From: Promethearchaeota archaeon
GTDB taxonomy: Archaea > Asgardarchaeota > Lokiarchaeia > Sigyniarchaeales > SOKP01
DNA: 64,000 nucleotides
Assembly: GCA_019058445.1 (NCBI GenBank)
Contig: JAHPZA010000006.1
Span: forward strand, 1,164,943-1,228,942
Direction: 5' to 3'
A program made the translations under genes and the position numbers. The notes under the pieces were generated by a model, which made no database searches, was not told the origin of the DNA, and was given only the letters and a program-made list of their open reading frames with translations. This document shows, one piece after another, positions 14,280 to 48,622 of this stretch. The stretch's first letter is position 1; each line of letters starts with the position of its first letter.

Positions 14280-15467
14280 CTATATCCAATCCCCTGTTGA
14301 AAGTTTCTCTGGAAGGTATTTTTCCGTTAAAAATTCAAATCCATGGGTGGAGAATGCCTGAATTTCTGCTTTTATTTTTAATTTAAGAGCAAGATTTAGA
14401 TCATCACGCCATTCCTTATTTTGTTTTACAAAATCTTCATTAAGTATGTCTTTTGTTCTTTTGATATCTACTTTCGTCATGGGAAGTCTGACTTCATTTG
14501 GAATGTTATAAGCGTCTAAATCTCTTGTCAGTACTCCTAATAGCTTGATATTTGGCGTAGCAAGAAAAGGAGATTCATAACTCAGTCTCTTTGACCCGCG
14601 TAAATAAATCGAATGAATATAATGCCCATATGGGTCGCTATCAACTAAGCTAAAGACTGGGAGATTTAATTCTTTCGAAAGGCGTTTTAAGAACATCCGA
14701 ACTGCAACATTTCCCACACCCTGTGCAGTTAACAAGATACAAGGATATTTCCGCCAAAATCTTGCCTCTGCTAACCTCATCATAGCCGCATCCTTTTCAA
14801 TTACTAAAATAAACTCTGCATCTGATTCCAAGATTTCAATATTATCAAGCATAGGTGAAATTGTCCATCCGCCACTTCCCAAACCTTCAAGATCGATAAT
14901 ATCATTCCTATCTCTAATTCTAAGTCTTCCTACACAAGTGCCTTTTGGTGCAGCCACAATATGGGTTGAATTTCTTGTGGTATAGAGCATTGAAGCAACA
15001 TCTTCGATACTTTTATCGCTATTTTTCTGATCAGTAAATAATTTAACATCGGTATAGAAAATCTCACGCTTAGTAGCATGAATATCTTTAACTAACAACT
15101 CATCAACAATTTCAAGCACTCTCATAAGTCTAGTAATATCTGCAACACTCGTGAGAGAATGAAATTGTTTTTCCATAATTTGTCTGCCAAGTAATAACAA
15201 ATCATTATCTTCATCCCAAATAATGTTAGAACTTGATCGAGAGGGTAATTCAATTGTAGGTCTTCCAGATGACAAAATTTTGGCGATTACACCATCAACC
15301 ATCTTGTAAATCCTGTTTAAAGTTTCCTTTTTGTTTAAATCATCAATTTTTATTGTATCATCTGGAAGATTAATATCTTTTTTTTCAGTTCCTTTTGCTA
15401 AATACTCTTGAAGTAACGTCTTGGTTGCTTTAAAATCCCATTTTTGATCTGTTTTTTTTTTAGCCAT
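14280..15467 (-). CDS. top6A: DNA topoisomerase VI subunit A
   Basis: TKREIFY (catalytic Tyr), IEKDA, DSDPYG TOPRIM, KAEIQA; SD GAGGT before ATG 15467. Confidence 0.95.
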   Translation of the reverse strand: MAKKKTDQKWDFKATKTLLQEYLAKGTEKKDINLPDDTIKIDDLNKKETLNRIYKMVDGVIAKILSSGRPTIELPSRSSSNIIWDEDNDLLLLGRQIMEKQFHSLTSVADITRLMRVLEIVDELLVKDIHATKREIFYTDVKLFTDQKNSDKSIEDVASMLYTTRNSTHIVAAPKGTCVGRLRIRDRNDIIDLEGLGSGGWTISPMLDNIEILESDAEFILVIEKDAAMMRLAEARFWRKYPCILLTAQGVGNVAVRMFLKRLSKELNLPVFSLVDSDPYGHYIHSIYLRGSKRLSYESPFLATPNIKLLGVLTRDLDAYNIPNEVRLPMTKVDIKRTKDILNEDFVKQNKEWRDDLNLALKLKIKAEIQAFSTHGFEFLTEKYLPEKLSTGDWI

Positions 15468-15481
15468 AATTTTTACCTCTA

Positions 15482-18400
15482 TTATTTTAATTTCCAATGT
15501 TTTTTGCCCATTTTCACATCAACTACAACTTTTCCCTTACGTTCTAATTCTTTTAATTTGATCTGCAAGAACCTTGCATCCATCATATCTTTAATTCTCA
15601 ATTTGAAAATGAGATGTTTAATAGTTTGCCAATCATCTGTCAATGCTCCTATCAAACTATCAGTGGTAATCACCGGTAAATGGGTTTGTATTGGCTTAGG
15701 TGGTGTAAAAGAAGCTTTAGGTTTAGGTTTAGGAGGTGCTTTTTCTTTTATAGCTTGCATTCTTGCTTTTGCAGCTTTTAATTTTTTAGGCTCTAGTGCA
15801 ATAGGTTGTACTAATTCAACTTTTTCAGGTTTCTCTTCTTTAACAATTGGTTTTTCAACTCCTTTAAGATGATCTTGAATCTTCTTAATTATTTCAGTTT
15901 TTTTAATTTTCGATGGAATTTTTATATTATTTTCATCACAATATGCTCTTAATTTTTTTACAGTCCATTGAGTGAGAGTTTCAGTGTCGAGCATTTCCTT
16001 CTTGACGGGAATCTCTTTAGGTTTCTGAGTGATTTTTGTGGGTGTCTCTTTTTCTATGATACGTTCTTTCTCTTCTACTTTTTCCTCTTTTATTATTGGT
16101 CTCTCCTTAGGAGGTTCAAGAACTTGAACTTCAGGTTTTACTGGTAACGGTTCTTGGGGAATGGTAGGTATTTTTTTAACGCCTATCGCTTCCCTCATCA
16201 AAGTCTGGAGCTCTTTCTCATCAAGTTGACTTTTATAGATACTCTCTCCTTGATAAGCTATATTATACACACTTTTAACAAACTTTGGAATATATTTTTC
16301 AATTAAACTTGCTCTTTTTTCACTTTTACGTTGAGTTGCTTTTCGATTGATATATACTCTTAATCTACGTCCTATTGCTTCTAAACAAAATTTAATTTCC
16401 TTAATTAAACTTTCGTCATCGGCTAAAGCATTTTTAGACTGAGATTTAAACATTAAGTGAACAAATGGACCTGAAACGTTAACTAATAATTTTATTGGTC
16501 CTTTAGGTAAATTATTATCATAGGTATCTAATTTATAATTTTTCCAATTAACTGATTGAACTGCTTTGGTTATAGCACAATCAGCACTATCCCTTAATTT
16601 GGGAGTTCTATTTACAAATCGAGATAAAACATCCCTAGAACGTTTTGGGACTTCGATCCGATTTGAATATGCTAACACTGCTTCAACTACATAAGCCAAT
16701 CCTTTTCCACTTGTAGGATCTCTTGTTTCAGCTGAAATAAAATCATCATCTTTGGTATAATTTTCTACAAAGTATTCGAATACCATATTATAAGTCTCTT
16801 TTGTTTCAGCTTCTTCTTTTTCAATAAAATTAATTATTGATTGTGTTAATTGGTCTGATTCTATACTGGTGTCTTTAATATCAACGTTTTTCAAAATTTG
16901 AGAATTGACATCGATAACTTCTTCTACATCAACAGAAATCTCGTTTAAAATTTCTTCACTAGCATTTGAATCTTCTTGGATTATTACTTCTTTTTTTTCA
17001 CTAAGCAAAATATCAAATATTTTCTTGATATCATCAGTTGGTGTATCGTAGTCATCTAAATTTTCTGAAACTCGCAAACCTAAATCTTTTATTAAAGTAT
17101 TTTCTAATATGGTATCTCCAACTGGTATGGCAGTATCAGTAGGTGGTGCCATATACTTTATTGATTTGAAAGCAAGAAACAATGAATTAAATTGATCGTT
17201 AGTTAATTCTGCAGGCTTTACTTTGGAGAGTTGAACTTGATTAATTAAATCTTCGAATTCAGTTCTATTTTTCAGTTTTTTTAATTCATTCAACCCATCC
17301 TGATTATTTTTCAATAAAATTTCGATGTTTTGTTTTAATTTATCCTTATCTTTCCTATTTTTATCGATTTCACTTAATAATTTCCTTATTTCATTCTGAA
17401 TTGATTTTTCGTCTTTTTTTGTCTCAGCTTTATCAATCTGGTCGTTATGTTTTTTTATTTTTTTGTTTATTTTCTCTCTATTTTTTATTAATTGATTATA
17501 TTTTGAAATTAAATCCCAATATTGATTTTTTAAATCATCAGAGACTATTTCATAAATTATCAATTTATCTCTCGGCTTTTGAGATCTTCCATAAACTCTC
17601 TTTTCAAACTGAAGGAAATAAAATGTATCACTGTTTTTTCCTGGGATAGTAGCAAATCCCGTACTAAGAATAAGAAGTTTAAGTTTATCTTGTAAATCTC
17701 TTTCAGCTAAATCAATAATTTCTTTTGCTGTTTTAGAGCTTACTCTTACAAAGTTTTCTTTTAAAAATGAGCTTATTGTAAGATTATTGGTTTTAATTAA
17801 TAAATCTTGAAGATCACCAATATTAGTGGAAGATGGATGGGGTAATGCATATTTAGGTTCTAAAGGAAATGAAGAAACTTTTCTTGGATAAATATGTTCC
17901 TCGTTATAAGGATCTATAAAAATGATAGTGATATGGGGGTTCATTAAAGCCGTTTCCTTTATATATGTATCGACATATCCCCGAATATATTTCACATTCA
18001 AGTAATGTAGTTTTATATAAGTCCCGTGAAGAAACGGACAATCAACTTCAGTCGGAGTAATGAAATATTTTTTTTCATTTTTAGAAGTAGTGGAAAATTC
18101 TGAAACGGTGGCATATACATTTTCCACTGATTTTGAGACGGCAACAATTGGTTTTCCCGTAGTGTTTTGTGAATCACTAAAAGCACTAGGGGCCCCGAAA
18201 CCTTGAGAACCTCTGGTTTGTTTTAATTGCATGCTTTTACTGGAAGCTAGATATTTTCCAAATTTTCGTAAGTCTACTTTTGACATCCCAGTTCCATTAT
18301 CAAAAATTTCAAAAGTATAACTCATCACGTTCTTTTGACTTAATTCTGAAGTCAAAAATGAAGCTGCTTCGGTTTCGCCTATTCGCATAATTACAATAGG

Positions 18401-18928
18401 TTCGTCATCAATAATGGATTCTACAGGTTTAATAATTTCTTCCATATCAACAATAATTTTCTTAACTTCCTCTTCTACCTCAATTTCAGACTTATCAGTT
18501 ATCTCTCCAGACTTAGCTGGTTCTTCTTCTTTCTCTACCTCAAATTCTGTCACTTCAGTTTCGCTAGGTTCTGTTTTTTCAGTTTCACTAGGTTCTAAAC
18601 CAAATTCTTTCATTAAAGTCTGCTTTGCCTCATCATCTAAAGGTTTAAATGTGGTCTTGTCTTCGGATTCTTTTTGAAGAATAGAGAGATTTTCTAAGGA
18701 TAATTCTTGGTCTAATGTGAATCTAAGTTTTGAATTTGGGTTTTGAATCTCTTCCCATTGAAAGGTTTCAATAGCGTCAAGTGCATTGTCTAAAAATTCT
18801 GCCACGTACTGTTGGTGTTTCCAATAGCCAAATTCAAAACCAACTAATTGAGTACGCTTGCGCATAAATTCCGCTATAGTCCCTTGCTTAATCGTCGATT
18901 TTTCATCTCGAGAGGTAATGGTAAACAC
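15482..18928 (-). CDS. top6B: DNA topoisomerase VI subunit B, expanded (1148 aa)
   Basis: EFLDNALDA, DNGTGM, QTRGSQGFG, HGT GHKL motifs; PHP; RFVNRTP; FKSQSK transducer. Confidence 0.93.
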   Translation of the reverse strand: MFTITSRDEKSTIKQGTIAEFMRKRTQLVGFEFGYWKHQQYVAEFLDNALDAIETFQWEEIQNPNSKLRFTLDQELSLENLSILQKESEDKTTFKPLDDEAKQTLMKEFGLEPSETEKTEPSETEVTEFEVEKEEEPAKSGEITDKSEIEVEEEVKKIIVDMEEIIKPVESIIDDEPIVIMRIGETEAASFLTSELSQKNVMSYTFEIFDNGTGMSKVDLRKFGKYLASSKSMQLKQTRGSQGFGAPSAFSDSQNTTGKPIVAVSKSVENVYATVSEFSTTSKNEKKYFITPTEVDCPFLHGTYIKLHYLNVKYIRGYVDTYIKETALMNPHITIIFIDPYNEEHIYPRKVSSFPLEPKYALPHPSSTNIGDLQDLLIKTNNLTISSFLKENFVRVSSKTAKEIIDLAERDLQDKLKLLILSTGFATIPGKNSDTFYFLQFEKRVYGRSQKPRDKLIIYEIVSDDLKNQYWDLISKYNQLIKNREKINKKIKKHNDQIDKAETKKDEKSIQNEIRKLLSEIDKNRKDKDKLKQNIEILLKNNQDGLNELKKLKNRTEFEDLINQVQLSKVKPAELTNDQFNSLFLAFKSIKYMAPPTDTAIPVGDTILENTLIKDLGLRVSENLDDYDTPTDDIKKIFDILLSEKKEVIIQEDSNASEEILNEISVDVEEVIDVNSQILKNVDIKDTSIESDQLTQSIINFIEKEEAETKETYNMVFEYFVENYTKDDDFISAETRDPTSGKGLAYVVEAVLAYSNRIEVPKRSRDVLSRFVNRTPKLRDSADCAITKAVQSVNWKNYKLDTYDNNLPKGPIKLLVNVSGPFVHLMFKSQSKNALADDESLIKEIKFCLEAIGRRLRVYINRKATQRKSEKRASLIEKYIPKFVKSVYNIAYQGESIYKSQLDEKELQTLMREAIGVKKIPTIPQEPLPVKPEVQVLEPPKERPIIKEEKVEEKERIIEKETPTKITQKPKEIPVKKEMLDTETLTQWTVKKLRAYCDENNIKIPSKIKKTEIIKKIQDHLKGVEKPIVKEEKPEKVELVQPIALEPKKLKAAKARMQAIKEKAPPKPKPKASFTPPKPIQTHLPVITTDSLIGALTDDWQTIKHLIFKLRIKDMMDARFLQIKLKELERKGKVVVDVKMGKKHWKLK

Positions 18929-42353: not shown

Positions 42354-43109
42354 TTAATCGCTATTAATATCATTATCTTTATTATCGTCGGAAGCAATAT
42401 TATCAAGGCCAAGTTGGGAAACCATGATTCTCTTCATTTCTTCTTTATTTTTAGGTAATCCAAACATTTCAGCATATTTATCTGTAGTAGTTAATTCATG
42501 AGATCTTCCTTTTTTAATAGCAAAAATTAAGTCATTATCAAGAAGATATTTAACATGTTCATAAGCTCCGCTCCCTCTTAGTTTAATAACTAAAGATTTA
42601 AGAATTGGCTGTTTTAATGCGATTACTGTTAAGGTTCTTAAGTATCTCTCGGCAATTGCCCCTCCTTTCGCAAATTTTGAAACTTTTTCAATAAATTCTG
42701 TTCTAAGAGCCATTTGGAAATCCTCACCAACCTTATTTATTACGAGAGCAGTGGATCGTTCTAGATACTCGAAAGCAAGTTCATTTATCAACTCTTCAAC
42801 TTCTTTTTTTGGAATCTCCAACCTTGTGTTTAATTCTTCAATACTTAAAGATCTACCCGAAACATAAAGAGAAGCTTCAATAAGATTTTTATGATAGTCT
42901 TTCACTTGTCTTGCAATCAGCTCTTTATCTGTTTCAACTGAATCCGATATAAGGCTTGTATTTTTATCATCGCTAATTTCGGTTTCATTAATTTCTTCAA
43001 TAGTTTCATCAGTTGTTTCCATACTTAGTTCATTAACCTCATCTTCTGGAGGTATTTCATTATCTTTCTTTTCAGAATCATCTTTTATTTCCTCATTAAA
43101 CTCATCCAT
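42354..43109 (-). CDS. scpB: SMC-Scp complex subunit ScpB (kite)
   Basis: IEASLYVSGRSL, TLTVIALKQPI, RGSGAYEHVK, TTDKYAEMFGL; acidic N-terminal tail. Confidence 0.92.
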   Translation of the reverse strand: MDEFNEEIKDDSEKKDNEIPPEDEVNELSMETTDETIEEINETEISDDKNTSLISDSVETDKELIARQVKDYHKNLIEASLYVSGRSLSIEELNTRLEIPKKEVEELINELAFEYLERSTALVINKVGEDFQMALRTEFIEKVSKFAKGGAIAERYLRTLTVIALKQPILKSLVIKLRGSGAYEHVKYLLDNDLIFAIKKGRSHELTTTDKYAEMFGLPKNKEEMKRIMVSQLGLDNIASDDNKDNDINSD

Positions 43110-43137
43110 ACACAATCATCCTCTCTTTTGAATTTTT

Positions 43138-44136
43138 TTATTTCATACTAATTGAGATATCTTTGAACTCATCTGCTTGAAAAAGAGTTAATTTATTTCC
43201 AGTACTTAAAAACATTAATGCTAAAAACATTCTTACAAATGCAAATTTCCTCCCGATAGTACTTTCTTCTTCATTTTTTATTATATGTAATAGATCAAAA
43301 AAACTAGAATCTTTATTATTTAAATTAATCGTAGCTTTTATTCGATTATACCAACTTTCATGTAATTCCTCAACAGTTTGTTCTTTTCCGCTTATATGTT
43401 TTAAGAGTTCTTTGGGTAATTTCGCTTGAGATAACCTTCTCAGACGTTTTTGCTTTTGTTCTTCTTGTCTTAAGCGTCTCCTCCTTAATTTTTCTTTCTT
43501 TTGCATGGTTTCAATAATTGCAGCTCTCATAGCCTCAAATAATTCATCTTTAGTTGCTATTTGCATTTTAGGGCTAATTGGTTGAGGTAATGACTTAGGA
43601 ATTGTTCTTGAATGACGTTGTCTCAATTTTTCGAGTTCTTCCATCTTTTGAATTTGTTCCTCCTCTCGAATTATGCTAGAGATTTTAAAATGGTGCAAAT
43701 TTGCTGCCGTTCTTAATGCTATTCCAGAAATCTTGTAATTTATGAGCTCTTCTTCAAGCATATGATCAAAAAATTTATCTACTAATGCTGAGAGATCATA
43801 AAATGCGACTTGAGAATCTTTAGCTAAGTCAAGATCCAGTAATACCCTATATTTTGGTTTTTGCCAAAACTTTGGTTCAGCCTTGTCCCTTTGTATAAGA
43901 GGGGATTCTTCATCCTCTTCTTCAAAACCAGCAATTAATTCCTCTTCTAATTCTTCTTCTTGGGTTCGATCTACGAAATCGGGACTAGTTACTACGCCTT
44001 TTACTAACTCAACTATATCCTTCTTTTTCGCTTTTGATGGAATTTTAATATTGTTTTTATTACAAAATTCTCTTAACTGCTTAACTGTCCATTTATTAAA
44101 ATCAGTTTTTTCATTGATTTTTTCTTGATCTGAAAT
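43138..44136 (-). CDS. scpA: Kleisin ScpA with N-terminal HeH/SAP-like module; inferred ATT start
   Basis: Frame is open for 125 codons upstream of the ATG at 43761, up to ATT at 44136 behind SD AAGGTGA; in-frame TGA three codons earlier; kleisin motifs DLSALVDKFF...ISGIALRTAA and FLALMFL...Q.DEF.DI; lies between smc and scpB. Confidence 0.85.
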   Translation of the reverse strand: MSDQEKINEKTDFNKWTVKQLREFCNKNNIKIPSKAKKKDIVELVKGVVTSPDFVDRTQEEELEEELIAGFEEEDEESPLIQRDKAEPKFWQKPKYRVLLDLDLAKDSQVAFYDLSALVDKFFDHMLEEELINYKISGIALRTAANLHHFKISSIIREEEQIQKMEELEKLRQRHSRTIPKSLPQPISPKMQIATKDELFEAMRAAIIETMQKKEKLRRRRLRQEEQKQKRLRRLSQAKLPKELLKHISGKEQTVEELHESWYNRIKATINLNNKDSSFFDLLHIIKNEEESTIGRKFAFVRMFLALMFLSTGNKLTLFQADEFKDISISMK

Positions 44137-44167
44137 AGTATCTCACCTTTTGCTTAAAATTTTTAGA

Positions 44168-47100
44168 TTAATTTTCCACTTTAGGAGGGACATCTTCTAA
44201 TTCCAACAATCTTTTCGCTTCTTCTTCTAAATCGACACTGAAAATATCTGTAATGCCCGATTGTTGCATAGAAACTCCGTAAATACGGTCTGCATTCACT
44301 ATATTTTCTTCTCTATGACTAATTACAAGGAATTGTGCCTGATCAGAGAATTCTTGTATTACAGTGCTAACGCGGTGAACATTCGGTCCATCAAGTGCCG
44401 CATCGATCTCATCCATTATATAAAATGGTGCGGGGTAAAATTCTTGGACGGCAAAGATAAAAGATAAAGCTACTAAGGTTTTCTCACCTCCGCTAAGAAT
44501 CTCCAATGAGGAGATCTTTTTTCCTCGAGGACGAGCTTCGATAGATATACCCCCTTCAAATGGTTTATCCGGTCTGTCAAGTATCATTTTAGCTGAGCCC
44601 CCAGGGGAGAGTTTCTGGAACACAGCACTAAACACTCTATTGATCTCATGATAAGCTGTCATAAATGTCCTTGTCTTTTCCAATTCTATCTTGTCTATCG
44701 CATCCAAAATAGACTTTCTTTCGCGCTGTATAGTCTGTCTGCGCATATCAATTTCATCGAATCTCTCCTTAACGGTATCATATTGTTCGATTGCTTTTAA
44801 ATTAACGGGCTCTAAGGCTCTTTTCTTTTTATTCGCAAGTGACATATCAGATTGTAATCCTTCCTCCGATAAATCCTCGGTTAAGGGGGGTAAGGTTCCA
44901 TAATCTTTAGATCTCTCGTATAGTGTTTCTATTTGATCTGCACAAATAATTTTTTTTGATTCATAATTATTCTTTTTAGAATTTTCCATAGAACGATCCG
45001 ATTTTAAATCAGTAATAACTTTTTGGTAATTTTTTTGTTTTTTCCATGATTCATCCTTTTCATTTATTAATTTATCAATTTCCTGTTGTTTCTCATCCTT
45101 TTTCTTAGTTTCTTCAATTAACTGATAATCAATTTTTTCTATTTCTTTTACTGTTAATTCTACTTGATTTTCAGTGTTTTTGATATCTTCATTATATATA
45201 ATGATTTGTTCTTCTCTTTCTTTATTTTTATGAATTTCATTTAGTTTTCCTTGGGTTTTTTGCAAGTTTTTATTAAATTTGTTTAAATTTTGTTGCGCTG
45301 TTTTTTGAGCCTCCAATTCTTTTTCTTTTTCTCCTCGAAAGGTATCAATAATTTTTTGGATTTCATCTATGTTTTTTTGAATTTCTTCAACTTCAGAATT
45401 AAAGGTTTGTATATTTTTATGACTCTCTTCAATATTTTTATTGGCATCCATGTTTTCCTTAGTTATTTCTTCGATGGAATTAATAATTCTCATAACATTA
45501 TCTAGTGCTCTTAGTTTATCCCTTATCTCTTCTAATTTTTTGTTTTCTTCATCAATTTCTTTTTGTATGTTTTCAATAATTTCCCAGAATTTTTCTTTAT
45601 TTCCCGCAAGATTTTGAATTTCTTTATCTAAGGAGGTTAAATCTAATTCTACTTTATTTATACTCCCTTCTGTGAGAAGGATTTGAGCTTTTTTCTCCTC
45701 ATTATTTTTATTTAAATTATTTATGCTATTGTCTAATTCATTAATATTTTCATATAAATTTTGAATCCCCTGAAGCTCCTGAAGTTTTTCTTGAATATTA
45801 TCATACTCCTTTTGAGCTTTATCAATCTCATCTTGAATCTCAGATATCTCTTTCCAATAATTATCTTTAATATTTTTTAATTCATTTATATCATTATTAA
45901 TTTGTTCGAGATCACTTCCTTTTTCATTTATGCTGGCATTTCTCTCATTAATTTCGAGGGTATATTTTTCAATCCTCTCATTGATCTCCTTAATTCTTTT
46001 ATCAACCTCCTCCAGTCTTTTGTTTGAGATGGTAAGATTCTCGGTATCATGTGTTTTTTTAAGATTAATTTCCGTTAAATTTTTCTCAACCTCAGTTAAA
46101 TCATCCTCTTGAGTTTTAATGCTACTAGAAATTTCTTCCATTTGTTTGTAAAGTTCTTGAGATTTTGACATGGTTAGTTTTCTTAGGGAGATATGGACAT
46201 TTTCTAATATTTCCATTAAATCCATAACAAAAGCATCAAAATTGGAGGTCGATTCATGTACTGCCACATCAGCAGATTCTTTAACTTTACTAATAAGGTG
46301 TGTTATTGTGGAGTCCGCATTATCTGTAAATAAAGTTAACGTTTGTAATATCGAGTCAAGCATGTTTGACATTTCAGCCATTTCTTCACTCTCACTACTA
46401 ACGCTCTCCATAGTTTTCATTATATCAATAATATCTAACACGAATTTTTTAAAATCTTCGGCAGAAGTTTCAATAGCTTCAGCATTAGACTGTTGTATAT
46501 TGGCCTTAATAGATTCTACTGATACGTTTATATTTTGAGTGAGCATGTTTAAAATTTGAAGTATTCCGGTTACATCGTCTTTACTTTTATCATACTCTTC
46601 CTCTGAATTTTCTATCTTTTTTAAAAGAGCTTCTTTTTCTTTTGTAAGCTCATCTAAACGTCTTTGGATATTCTCTTTTTTAATGATAAATGTCTCTGAA
46701 TCTTTCTCAGATTTTGAAATATTAGTATTTAAGCTACTTACACTTAAATCTAAATTACGTTTCTCGCGCTCTAAATTAGTTAATTCTTTCTTAAATATTT
46801 TTAATTCAGTATTCATATTAGAAATCTTGCCTTGATTATCAATAATCTCGGCATCAATAGCCTCTTTTTTTAAATTTAGTAACTCTAAATTTTGTTCATT
46901 CTTTCGATAAGCAGAATCTTCATCTTTGGATTTCTTTTTTAAATCGCTTAAGTTTTTAAGGATATTTTCCTTTTCATGTAGGAGAGCCTTTACAATTTCC
47001 TCTATTTCTTTACCCTTGCTCAATTCCTCGATCTTTTGGATAGTTCTTTCTTTTTTTTGGTTTGCCTTTTTAATACTTTCATTATTCATCTTAATTTCAG

Positions 47101-48622
47101 TAGTTAATGAAGATAATGTCGATTTTAAATCAGTTAACTTAGAGTTTAAAGCAGTTTTTTTGGTTTGAACCAAATTAATATCATTTTCCAGATTTCTCTG
47201 TTTCAGATTTTCATCTGAGATTTTAACTTTAAGCTGCTCAATTTTTGTTTTAATTTCATTTTCAATATTTATAGTAGCTTTTCTTGCTTCTTCTATACTT
47301 TCATGATCTCCTTTTAATGATTCTAATTCAACCTCTAATTTTTCTTTTTTAATTTCATTCTTTTTTATATTATCTTTAAGCACCTTAATTTTTGATTCAT
47401 TAGATGAAATATTTTGTTTCACTTTTGATATCTCTGAGTTGAACTTAGATTTTTCATCTTCATTACTTTTAATTTTATTATCTAGTTCTGCTTGATTTTG
47501 TTGTCGTTTTTCAATTTCCTTTTTTGCCTCTTCAATTCTATTTTCTATTTCAGCGATATCTTTCGTTACATCTTCTATTAGGGAGTCAAATGTCTGACCC
47601 TCTTCGAGTTTCATTAAAAGTTTTTCTAATTGTTCTTTATCAATAGTTAATTTCTCAATTGACTTTTTTGCAATGCTCAAGGTTGTCTGGTTTGATGATA
47701 ATTCAGTTTTTGTTTGGGTGATAGCTTCATTTAACTCTTCTCTTTCTTTTTCTTTAACATTTATGTTACTTTGTATATTATCCATAACCAGGGATTCTTG
47801 TTTTAATAGTTCTTCTTGTCTCGTAATTTTTTCTTCAAATTCTTCCAATACTTTATTAACATCTTCAATTTTCCTATCTAATTCTTCTTCTTCTTTCTGA
47901 TATTGTGCAATTTTTAAAGCAAGTAACTGAGCATTATAAAAATTAATTTTATCATCAAGTTCTTTCCATGCTAAGGCGTCATTTTTCTCTTTTTCAACTT
48001 TTTTTAGTTGAGTAGATACCTCCTTAAAGATTGCTTCGAATTGTCCCAAATCTCGTTCAGCTTTTTCTAACTCTTTCAAGGTAGAATCTTTCATTTCGTC
48101 ATATTTTTGGAGGCCAATTAATTCTTCGATAAATTTACGTCTATCCTCTGAATTCATATGAGTTAATTCAACTATCTTCCCTTGTAATACAAATTGATTG
48201 CTACCATCAGGATCAACATTTGCAGTTGCCAACGCATTAAGAATTTGTTGTCTTGTTGCCTTTTTTTCATTCATTTTATATCCCCCACCTCCGCCCCTTT
48301 TAATGATTCTGGTAATTGTAAAATCCCCATCACTACCACCTGGAAAAATTCCATCTGAATTGTCAAAATGTATAGTAACCGAAGCGCGATTAGAAGGGTT
48401 CTTTCCTCTTGAACCTGCAAATATTAAATCTTCTAAACTTTTTGCACGCATTGTTTTTTTACTTAATCTCCCTAATGCAAAACATAAGGCATCAATAATG
48501 TTGGATTTTCCAGCACCATTCGGTCCTACTATGCAGGTAAACCCACTTGAAAGTTTAATTGTAACCGTCCGATCTCCAAAGCTTTTAAACCCACTCATGG
48601 ACACTTTTTTAATATAGGTCAG
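44168..48622 (-). CDS. smc: SMC ATPase with non-canonical hinge region; inferred CTG start
   Basis: (M)TYIKKVSMSGFKSF behind SD GAGGAG; GPNGAGKSN, QG Q-loop, PVNLKAI, LSGGEK, DEIDAALD, ISH. Confidence 0.93.
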   Translation of the reverse strand: MTYIKKVSMSGFKSFGDRTVTIKLSSGFTCIVGPNGAGKSNIIDALCFALGRLSKKTMRAKSLEDLIFAGSRGKNPSNRASVTIHFDNSDGIFPGGSDGDFTITRIIKRGGGGGYKMNEKKATRQQILNALATANVDPDGSNQFVLQGKIVELTHMNSEDRRKFIEELIGLQKYDEMKDSTLKELEKAERDLGQFEAIFKEVSTQLKKVEKEKNDALAWKELDDKINFYNAQLLALKIAQYQKEEEELDRKIEDVNKVLEEFEEKITRQEELLKQESLVMDNIQSNINVKEKEREELNEAITQTKTELSSNQTTLSIAKKSIEKLTIDKEQLEKLLMKLEEGQTFDSLIEDVTKDIAEIENRIEEAKKEIEKRQQNQAELDNKIKSNEDEKSKFNSEISKVKQNISSNESKIKVLKDNIKKNEIKKEKLEVELESLKGDHESIEEARKATINIENEIKTKIEQLKVKISDENLKQRNLENDINLVQTKKTALNSKLTDLKSTLSSLTTEIKMNNESIKKANQKKERTIQKIEELSKGKEIEEIVKALLHEKENILKNLSDLKKKSKDEDSAYRKNEQNLELLNLKKEAIDAEIIDNQGKISNMNTELKIFKKELTNLEREKRNLDLSVSSLNTNISKSEKDSETFIIKKENIQRRLDELTKEKEALLKKIENSEEEYDKSKDDVTGILQILNMLTQNINVSVESIKANIQQSNAEAIETSAEDFKKFVLDIIDIMKTMESVSSESEEMAEMSNMLDSILQTLTLFTDNADSTITHLISKVKESADVAVHESTSNFDAFVMDLMEILENVHISLRKLTMSKSQELYKQMEEISSSIKTQEDDLTEVEKNLTEINLKKTHDTENLTISNKRLEEVDKRIKEINERIEKYTLEINERNASINEKGSDLEQINNDINELKNIKDNYWKEISEIQDEIDKAQKEYDNIQEKLQELQGIQNLYENINELDNSINNLNKNNEEKKAQILLTEGSINKVELDLTSLDKEIQNLAGNKEKFWEIIENIQKEIDEENKKLEEIRDKLRALDNVMRIINSIEEITKENMDANKNIEESHKNIQTFNSEVEEIQKNIDEIQKIIDTFRGEKEKELEAQKTAQQNLNKFNKNLQKTQGKLNEIHKNKEREEQIIIYNEDIKNTENQVELTVKEIEKIDYQLIEETKKKDEKQQEIDKLINEKDESWKKQKNYQKVITDLKSDRSMENSKKNNYESKKIICADQIETLYERSKDYGTLPPLTEDLSEEGLQSDMSLANKKKRALEPVNLKAIEQYDTVKERFDEIDMRRQTIQRERKSILDAIDKIELEKTRTFMTAYHEINRVFSAVFQKLSPGGSAKMILDRPDKPFEGGISIEARPRGKKISSLEILSGGEKTLVALSFIFAVQEFYPAPFYIMDEIDAALDGPNVHRVSTVIQEFSDQAQFLVISHREENIVNADRIYGVSMQQSGITDIFSVDLEEEAKRLLELEDVPPKVEN

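Follow-up and report, generated by a model that had tools for sequence, protein, structure and literature searches.

Within a 64,000-nt window of a Promethearchaeota (Lokiarchaeial) metagenome-assembled genome (contig JAHPZA010000006.1, positions 1,164,943 to 1,228,942), the C-terminal tail of topoisomerase VI subunit B (Top6B) and the N-terminus of the kleisin ScpA were found to carry the same helix-extension-helix (HeH)/SAP-like module (Table 1). The module is probably an interchangeable, non-specific tether for nucleic acids (polyanions), which was fused to several proteins in one Lokiarchaeial family, where it replaces basic tails. The evidence consists of the carriers of the module, its predicted fold, its distribution, and the elements found at its position in sister lineages.

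When the module regions of Top6B and ScpA were compared by pairwise BLASTP, 14 of 22 positions were identical (E 5e-10), and in both proteins the module has a length of ∼38 amino acid residues and a helix-extension-helix layout; the two copies lie where the initial annotation had placed them. A hidden Markov model (HMM), built first from the two copies and then from four, was searched against all six-frame stop-to-stop open reading frames (ORFs) of the 4.6-Mb genome, as the annotation had proposed. Four ORFs were recovered at E ≤ 1.6e-8, namely Top6B, ScpA, RadA and a gelsolin-like protein. Since the next-best ORF reached only E 0.056 with the two-copy HMM and 0.008 with the four-copy HMM, the match is far beyond chance. 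RadA (Pfam Rad51, 3.9e-93) carries the module at its N-terminus, followed by an acidic linker and a helix-hairpin-helix (HhH) domain, and the gelsolin-like protein (396 residues) has a gelsolin-like N-domain and the module near its C-terminus. Among these strong carriers, Top6B, ScpA and RadA, three out of four, are proteins that act on DNA. A Rho_N scan of the genome added one more distant carrier, a 330-residue protein whose family is otherwise unknown.

All four copies gave Pfam matches to Ish1, HeH, SAP and Rho_N, mostly slightly under the curated cut-offs. The ScpA copy passed the cut-off of Ish1 (30.5 bits vs 26.6) and stayed under those of HeH, SAP and Rho_N, and the Top6B copy reached none. 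The gelsolin-like copy was above the Rho_N cut-off in both the protein and the genome scans, and the RadA copy passed it in the genome scan (26.1 bits) and fell under it in the protein scan (21.5 bits). In the AlphaFold2 (AF2) model of the module, computed from a 28-sequence alignment, two helices (residues 15–24 and 35–47) were predicted with an extended linker between them, at a predicted local distance difference test score (pLDDT) of ∼80–89 (core, 86–89); the same helix-extended-helix was reproduced in the model of the full ScpA. The top Foldseek rows for the 55-residue model were SAP domains (2rno, 1zrj and 2do1), the CDNF/MANF C-domain and the Rho N-domain, with template modeling (TM) scores of 0.5–0.68 and all at E ≥ 1. 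A profile search of the module against the PDB sequences gave nothing significant, the best match being the Tho1 SAP domain (E 0.88).

Among 1.84 billion representative proteins, a profile of 28 copies retrieved 3363 proteins at E ≤ 1e-3, with one to six copies each. Pfam matches in the best 99 carriers were to Rho_N (83), SAP (63) and HeH (50), and phage Mu-F proteins, kinases, SNF2 proteins and many others were found among the proteins retrieved. Because the profile retrieves Rho_N, SAP and HeH carriers of many kinds, the module is classed on profile comparison as a subfamily of the ubiquitous and promiscuous SAP/HeH/Rho_N helix-extension-helix superfamily, in agreement with the SAP/HeH-like assignment made initially. 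In a weakly resolved tree of 35 module copies, copies from the same host tended to cluster, and those on Top6B in this genus grouped together, separate from the ScpA copies. The Trp and Cys positions common to several copies occur on other hosts too, and they are missing from the RadA and gelsolin-like copies and from Top6B in the congeners G006 and G009. Based on the synonymous divergence, the grouping in the tree and the distribution of these Trp and Cys residues, the likeness between the Top6B and ScpA copies is best described as shared subfamily ancestry and not as a private link. That top6B or scpA recently acquired its module from the other gene, by copying or gene conversion, was ruled out, given that the module DNA differs at many synonymous sites and that, in the weakly resolved tree, the copies on Top6B in this genus stand apart from those on ScpA.

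The source genome belongs to a family (f1) of the class Promethearchaeia, and the module subfamily is confined to this one Lokiarchaeial family: it was present in 97 of the 102 sampled f1 genomes, against 1 of the 18 from elsewhere in the class. Within f1, no module was found in the four genomes of the genus g8. In five further f1 genomes, from three other genera, the module was present without exception on ScpA, on Top6B and on the gelsolin-like protein; RadA lacked it in those five, and the RadA copies seen belong to this genus (G000, G002 and G008). The Top6B of relatives has one to three tandem copies in its C-tail. Two further carriers were seen in relatives, a GIFT/ABC_transp_aux-domain protein and a protein of 746–780 residues of unknown function.

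To see what stands in place of the module, the orthologues were read directly in module-free genomes of family f2 (G026 and G113, both single-contig), genus g8 (G016 and G055) and family f7 (G038). At the position of the module, the ScpA N-terminus showed a Lys/Thr/Ser-rich basic tail of 80–90 residues in f2, a zinc-ribbon-like motif, CPYCG...H..C, in g8 (L109:1501-2550:- and L110:1501-2520:-), and a short run of basic residues in f7; in all three, an acidic linker of like kind came next. The Top6B tail in f2 and g8 consisted of a long Lys/Pro/Ser/Thr-rich tract and the same terminal domain, with no HeH module, and the f7 tail differed from this type. RadA of the module-free genomes had a basic tail and an acidic linker, and one of the two g8 RadA paralogues had an extra HhH instead. 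In the gelsolin-like protein of g8, a basic Thr/Lys/Arg/Pro tract preceded the C-terminal motif ...LPKIPK..., in that of G026 (f2) a shorter Lys-rich stretch did so, and the f7 homologue had neither the basic tract nor the motif. On each of four unrelated hosts, one site is thus occupied by a basic tail in some lineages and by the HeH module in others. Since this swap recurs on four hosts, the module and the basic tails would be equivalent, charge-based binders of polyanions, most simply DNA.

According to this tether reading, the module would be a small polyanion-binding appendage on flexible linkers, without sequence specificity, which in f1 became fused to the ScpA N-terminus, the Top6B C-tail, the RadA N-terminus (in this genus) and the gelsolin-like protein, and which on each host takes the position of a Lys/Thr/Ser-rich basic tail. 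It probably raises the local DNA affinity or the residence time of each enzyme independently. The acidic linkers may be autoinhibitory, masking the module until the enzyme engages DNA; in ScpA, the acidic character of the linker was conserved among the aligned orthologues.

Several observations weigh against this reading. Most Pfam scores of the module copies are under the curated cut-offs, and Foldseek of the 55-residue model gave no match at E ≤ 0.001, although a domain of 40 residues would not be expected to reach significance. Two carriers, the gelsolin-like and the GIFT-domain protein, have no evident role on DNA, and the ligand could therefore be a protein or a different polyanion; for the same reason, the ligand may be a broader polyanion, or some carriers may connect the cytoskeleton and the nucleoid. 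Proteins, too, can be bound by SAP-like folds, as the CDNF/MANF C-domain among the fold matches binds BiP, and the LEM domain binds a protein partner, BAF.

The alternative that fared best takes the module for a binder of polyanions in general, or of RNA, with no specificity for DNA. The ligands of the module, and of the basic tails in whose place it stands, would be RNA, acidic lipids or acidic protein surfaces such as F-actin, and on DNA enzymes it would contribute to solubility or condensates more than to DNA targeting. The gelsolin-like and GIFT-domain carriers fit this alternative, and so do the adjoining basic and acidic tracts of each carrier protein and the fact that Rho_N, named after the RNA-binding protein Rho, is the best-matching family for several copies. 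We regard it as unlikely, given that DNA enzymes make up three quarters of the strong carriers in the genome, and that DNA binding is documented for the SAP domains of Ku70, PIAS and SAF-A (Aravind & Koonin 2000, cited through PMC11936186). In Ku70, the SAP domain adds non-specific DNA affinity (PMC11936186 and references there).

It is more doubtful still that the module is a common-partner tag, which would bind one protein or chromosomal landmark and thereby co-localize SMC-ScpAB, Topo VI and the other carriers. Such a tag would account for the joint presence of the module on ScpA, Top6B and the gelsolin-like protein in this genome and the five further ones, and for its joint absence from these hosts in g8 and in the genomes examined from f2 and f7; shared Trp and Cys positions in several copies and the protein-binding capacity of SAP-like folds (CDNF-BiP) point the same way. 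However, the co-occurrence of the carriers amounts to one evolutionary event, the copies on different hosts have diverged along with the host protein, and the Trp and Cys residues are lost in the copies named above. A specific-partner tag is also hard to reconcile with featureless basic tails as its substitutes in sister lineages, which argue for charge-based binding. In a stronger and improbable form of this idea, a single Lokiarchaeial family acquired the modules of ScpA, Top6B and the gelsolin-like protein jointly, and these recognize one common chromosomal partner or DNA feature, forming a hub for a loop-extruding SMC complex, a decatenating Topo VI and an actin regulator. If this form were true, the hub would represent a primitive actin-linked system of chromosome organization and segregation in Asgard archaea.

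The initial annotation had read the module as a shared targeting tag that would bring SMC-ScpAB and Topo VI to the same DNA or partner, as a possibly undescribed system of chromosome organization. A specific SMC-Topo VI coupling is not supported, and its chance is small, because the module also occurs on RadA, gelsolin-like and GIFT-domain proteins and others. The clustering of the copies by host and the basic tails at the same positions likewise speak against a dedicated system. The outcome that the annotation itself had named as contrary, a module scattered on unrelated proteins with no enrichment for chromosome functions, was found in half: the module is scattered, yet it is enriched on DNA enzymes.

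Among known systems, the proposed tether resembles the SAP domains (PF02037) at the C-terminus of Ku70 and in PIAS/Siz1, SAF-A/hnRNP-U and Tho1. These are likewise helix-extended-helix units of ∼35 residues on flexible linkers of repair and chromosome proteins, with a basic loop and second helix; they are thought to add a non-specific, AT-preferring DNA affinity, and they rank first among the fold matches of the module (at E ≥ 1). The module differs in its Pfam SAP scores (12.9–19.1 bits vs a cut-off of 23.9) and in its hosts, since a SAP domain is not known from kleisins, Top6B, RadA or gelsolin-like proteins, and the organism is an archaeon. The HeH/LEM-like and Rho_N domains (PF12949 and PF07498; Heh1/Heh2/Man1, the LEM-like domain of LAP2 and the N-terminus of bacterial Rho) are its best profile relatives, promiscuous and often in tandem, as in the Top6B of relatives; unlike them, the module has no membrane anchor or Rho ATPase context and is confined to one archaeal family. 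The basic low-complexity tails of the sister lineages, with Lys/Ser/Thr/Pro repeats like those of the histone H1 C-tail, occupy the same positions on ScpA, Top6B, RadA and the gelsolin-like protein and would therefore be equivalent in role, but they are disordered and non-homologous to the module, which is predicted to be a folded domain. MukB-Topo IV and condensin-Topo II offer a parallel in that an SMC complex and a type II topoisomerase of one cell carry a like module here; the couplings in those systems are direct contacts (MukB hinge-ParC), whereas the present likeness is known from sequence and the module is also found on unrelated proteins.

Fusions of the module to a kleisin, Top6B, RadA or a gelsolin-like protein were not found described in two papers on Topo VI evolution (PMC9665070 and PMC11302465), a preprint on SMC evolution (10.1101/2024.01.07.573240) or a paper on Asgard gelsolins (PMC7444086), nor in literature searches on SAP/HeH domains in Asgard archaea, Asgard kleisins and Topo VI evolution. 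For the Asgard TopoVIB, only a C-terminal domain was recorded by Brinkmeier et al. (2022). The fusions thus appear to be undescribed, and the domain type itself is known. SAP-type appendages on chromosome and repair proteins are usually seen as a eukaryotic habit, and an Asgard family shows the same. Moreover, the module and the H1-like tails at the same sites constitute a natural experiment on the gain and swap of putative DNA tethers near the root of the eukaryotes.

That the ScpA copy is part of a protein depends on where translation of scpA starts. As the initial annotation had noted, this N-terminus is hidden: from the upstream stop (44143-44145) to the first ATG at 43761, the frame contains no ATG, GTG or TTG. 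The frame is open from 44142 to 43138 on the minus strand; it was open and conserved in 40 orthologues, with identities of 58–90%. For the 122 codons upstream of the first ATG, the ratio of nonsynonymous to synonymous substitution rates (dN/dS) was 0.12 against two orthologues, compared with 0.06–0.09 downstream of it. For the module alone, dN/dS was 0.15 against the closer orthologue, and dS was saturated for the other. These values indicate that the ScpA extension is translated coding sequence under purifying selection, and they speak against the untranslated extension that the annotation had named as its own refutation. In an alignment of 32 orthologues, invariant residues of the kleisin N-domain were located upstream of the 43761 ATG, which therefore cannot be the start.

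Based on the orthologue comparison, scpA most likely starts at a conserved ATT/ATA behind a GGTGA Shine-Dalgarno motif. In 17 of the 40 distinct orthologues, no in-frame ATG, GTG or TTG was found upstream of the module; 16 of these 17 showed GGTGA or AGGTG, an in-frame ATT or ATA 6–7 nt later, and then a Ser codon. Some of the orthologues with a canonical start had an ATG at the same codon, among them L043 and L082, recognized from the same Shine-Dalgarno spacing, and L028 and L093, recognized by inspection; their N-termini read M-S-D/E, replacing I-S-D/E. The start was placed at the ATT because of this conserved pattern together with the ATG at the same codon in orthologues. The spacer between GGTG and ATG peaks at 5–9 nt genome-wide. 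In Pyrococcus abyssi, the aEF1A mRNA has GGAGGUGA-N5-AUG, a spacing that resembles the proposed scpA start (PMC6237735). The genome-wide Shine-Dalgarno statistics are weakly supportive, and few genes here use GGTG; against the proposed start, only ∼5% of the long ORFs have GGTG upstream of the first ATG, and initiation at AUU or AUA is rare.

It is very improbable that the extension merely reflects a frameshift artefact, or upstream DNA that is decaying or not translated, with the start at the ATG of 43761 or 44112-44114: the missing canonical start and an ATG with six A's one base out of frame (44112-44114), where one added A restores the frame, would suit it, but the conservation, the dN/dS of the extension and the loss of invariant residues from a 43761 start oppose it, and a frameshift or sequencing error at the A6 run was ruled out because the closest orthologue, L016, lacks the out-of-frame ATG and keeps the motif GGTGA-N6-ATT-TCN.

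ScpA would thus be made with its module, most likely from the ATT, 31 nt past the smc stop codon. A weak ATT/ATA start at this place may keep ScpA sub-stoichiometric to Smc, and the apparent ATT/ATA start behind a Shine-Dalgarno motif offers a testable case of non-canonical initiation in archaea. When scpA of this genome is called from the first ATG, 125 N-terminal residues are lost, among them the module and a portion of the kleisin N-domain, and gene calling limited to ATG, GTG and TTG truncates scpA in 17 of the 40 orthologues.

Table 1. Features of the top6 and smc-scpAB loci (window positions)
Feature	Position	Strand	Remarks
top6A	14280..15497	(-)	Pfam TOP6A-Spo11_Toprim 1.1e-57, TP6A_N 8.3e-18
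top6B	15482..18928	(-)	1148 residues, ∼2x usual length; ORF and Pfam Topo-VIb_trans 1.1e-28
Top6B terminal ∼64-residue domain	15485..15676	(-)	Conserved; winged-helix-like by eye
HeH/SAP-like module, Top6B C-terminal tail	15863..15976	(-)	Residues 985-1022, ∼38 residues
scpB	42354..43115	(-)	Pfam SMC_ScpB 5.7e-31; acidic N-terminal extension
scpA (kleisin)	43138..44136	(-)	332 residues with the ATT at 44134-44136 as start
First in-frame ATG of scpA	43759..43761	(-)	Falls within the conserved kleisin N-domain; ruled out as start
Acidic Glu/Asp-rich linker, ScpA module to kleisin N-domain	43903..43962	(-)	pLDDT <50 (AF2)
HeH/SAP-like module, ScpA N-terminus	43987..44100	(-)	Residues 15-52 of the open frame
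Proposed ATT start codon of scpA	44134..44136	(-)	From spacing and orthologue comparison
GGTGA Shine-Dalgarno-like motif	44143..44147	(-)	6 nt before the ATT
smc	44168..48604	(-)	1478 residues; Pfam SMC_N 4.6e-37

The genes smc, scpA and scpB follow one another in the window as a minus-strand operon. The Pfam SMC_ScpA family matched the C-terminal half of ScpA (residues 214-333) with 21.9 bits (cut-off 24.6; E 2e-4), and a profile search of the full ScpA against the PDB sequences gave nothing significant, the best match being the Scc1 C-terminal winged helix (E 0.48). In the full-length AF2 model, the HeH module was followed by a disordered linker, the kleisin helices, including a long helix at 131–171, and a winged-helix-like C-terminal domain of helices and strands. 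The predicted N-terminal helical domain and C-terminal winged helix, together with the position between smc and scpB, identify the protein as the kleisin ScpA. No SMC_hinge domain was detected in the central 450 residues of the adjoining 1478-residue SMC. A second SMC-like ORF elsewhere in the genome (a frame of 1151 residues) has a canonical hinge (39.3 bits; C6:623336-623677). Because the adjoining SMC lacks a detectable hinge and the other SMC-like ORF has one, the HeH-kleisin may be part of a divergent second SMC complex. ScpB has a strongly acidic N-terminal extension of ∼75 residues ahead of its Pfam ScpB domain (residues 78-225), and the acidic extensions of its orthologues in other families are longer still.

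Top6B is topoisomerase VI subunit B, as found from its transducer, its GHKL ATPase and the adjoining top6A; the ATPase match (HATPase_c_3) was slightly short of the Pfam cut-off, with 24.4 bits against 25. The 3' end of top6B overlaps the start of top6A, and both genes lie on the minus strand in one operon. The terminal domain of ∼64 residues was kept in orthologues with and without the HeH module, and no Pfam family matched it in the Pfam scan. Top6B also contains three inserts: one acidic, following the N-terminal GHKL motif, one Lys-rich and coiled-coil-like, and another acidic one ahead of the transducer. Its orthologues in other Lokiarchaeial families are equally long (frames of ∼1013–1668 residues). 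In five f1 genomes (the window, G072:C7, G120:C5, G088:C222 and G062:C40), the top6 and smc-scpAB loci lie 16–28 kb apart on one contig, a proximity that looks like general collinearity and not like an operon link.

The gelsolin-like protein (L004:484-1674:+; genome C9:152932-154164; orthologues L027, L029, L042, L119 and L120) has a weak Pfam Gelsolin/DUF7904 match, a middle domain without a known family, the HeH module or a basic tract, and, conserved at the C-terminus, ...R(K/N)LP(E/K)IPK.... This layout is similar to the '1DGelX' architecture of the Thorarchaeota gelsolins, in which the C-terminal domain is unknown (PMC7444086). The 746–780-residue carrier, seen in two congeners (L020:1-2340:- and L036:374-2611:+), consists of a very long Glu-rich tract, the HeH module and a large C-terminal region without a Pfam family.

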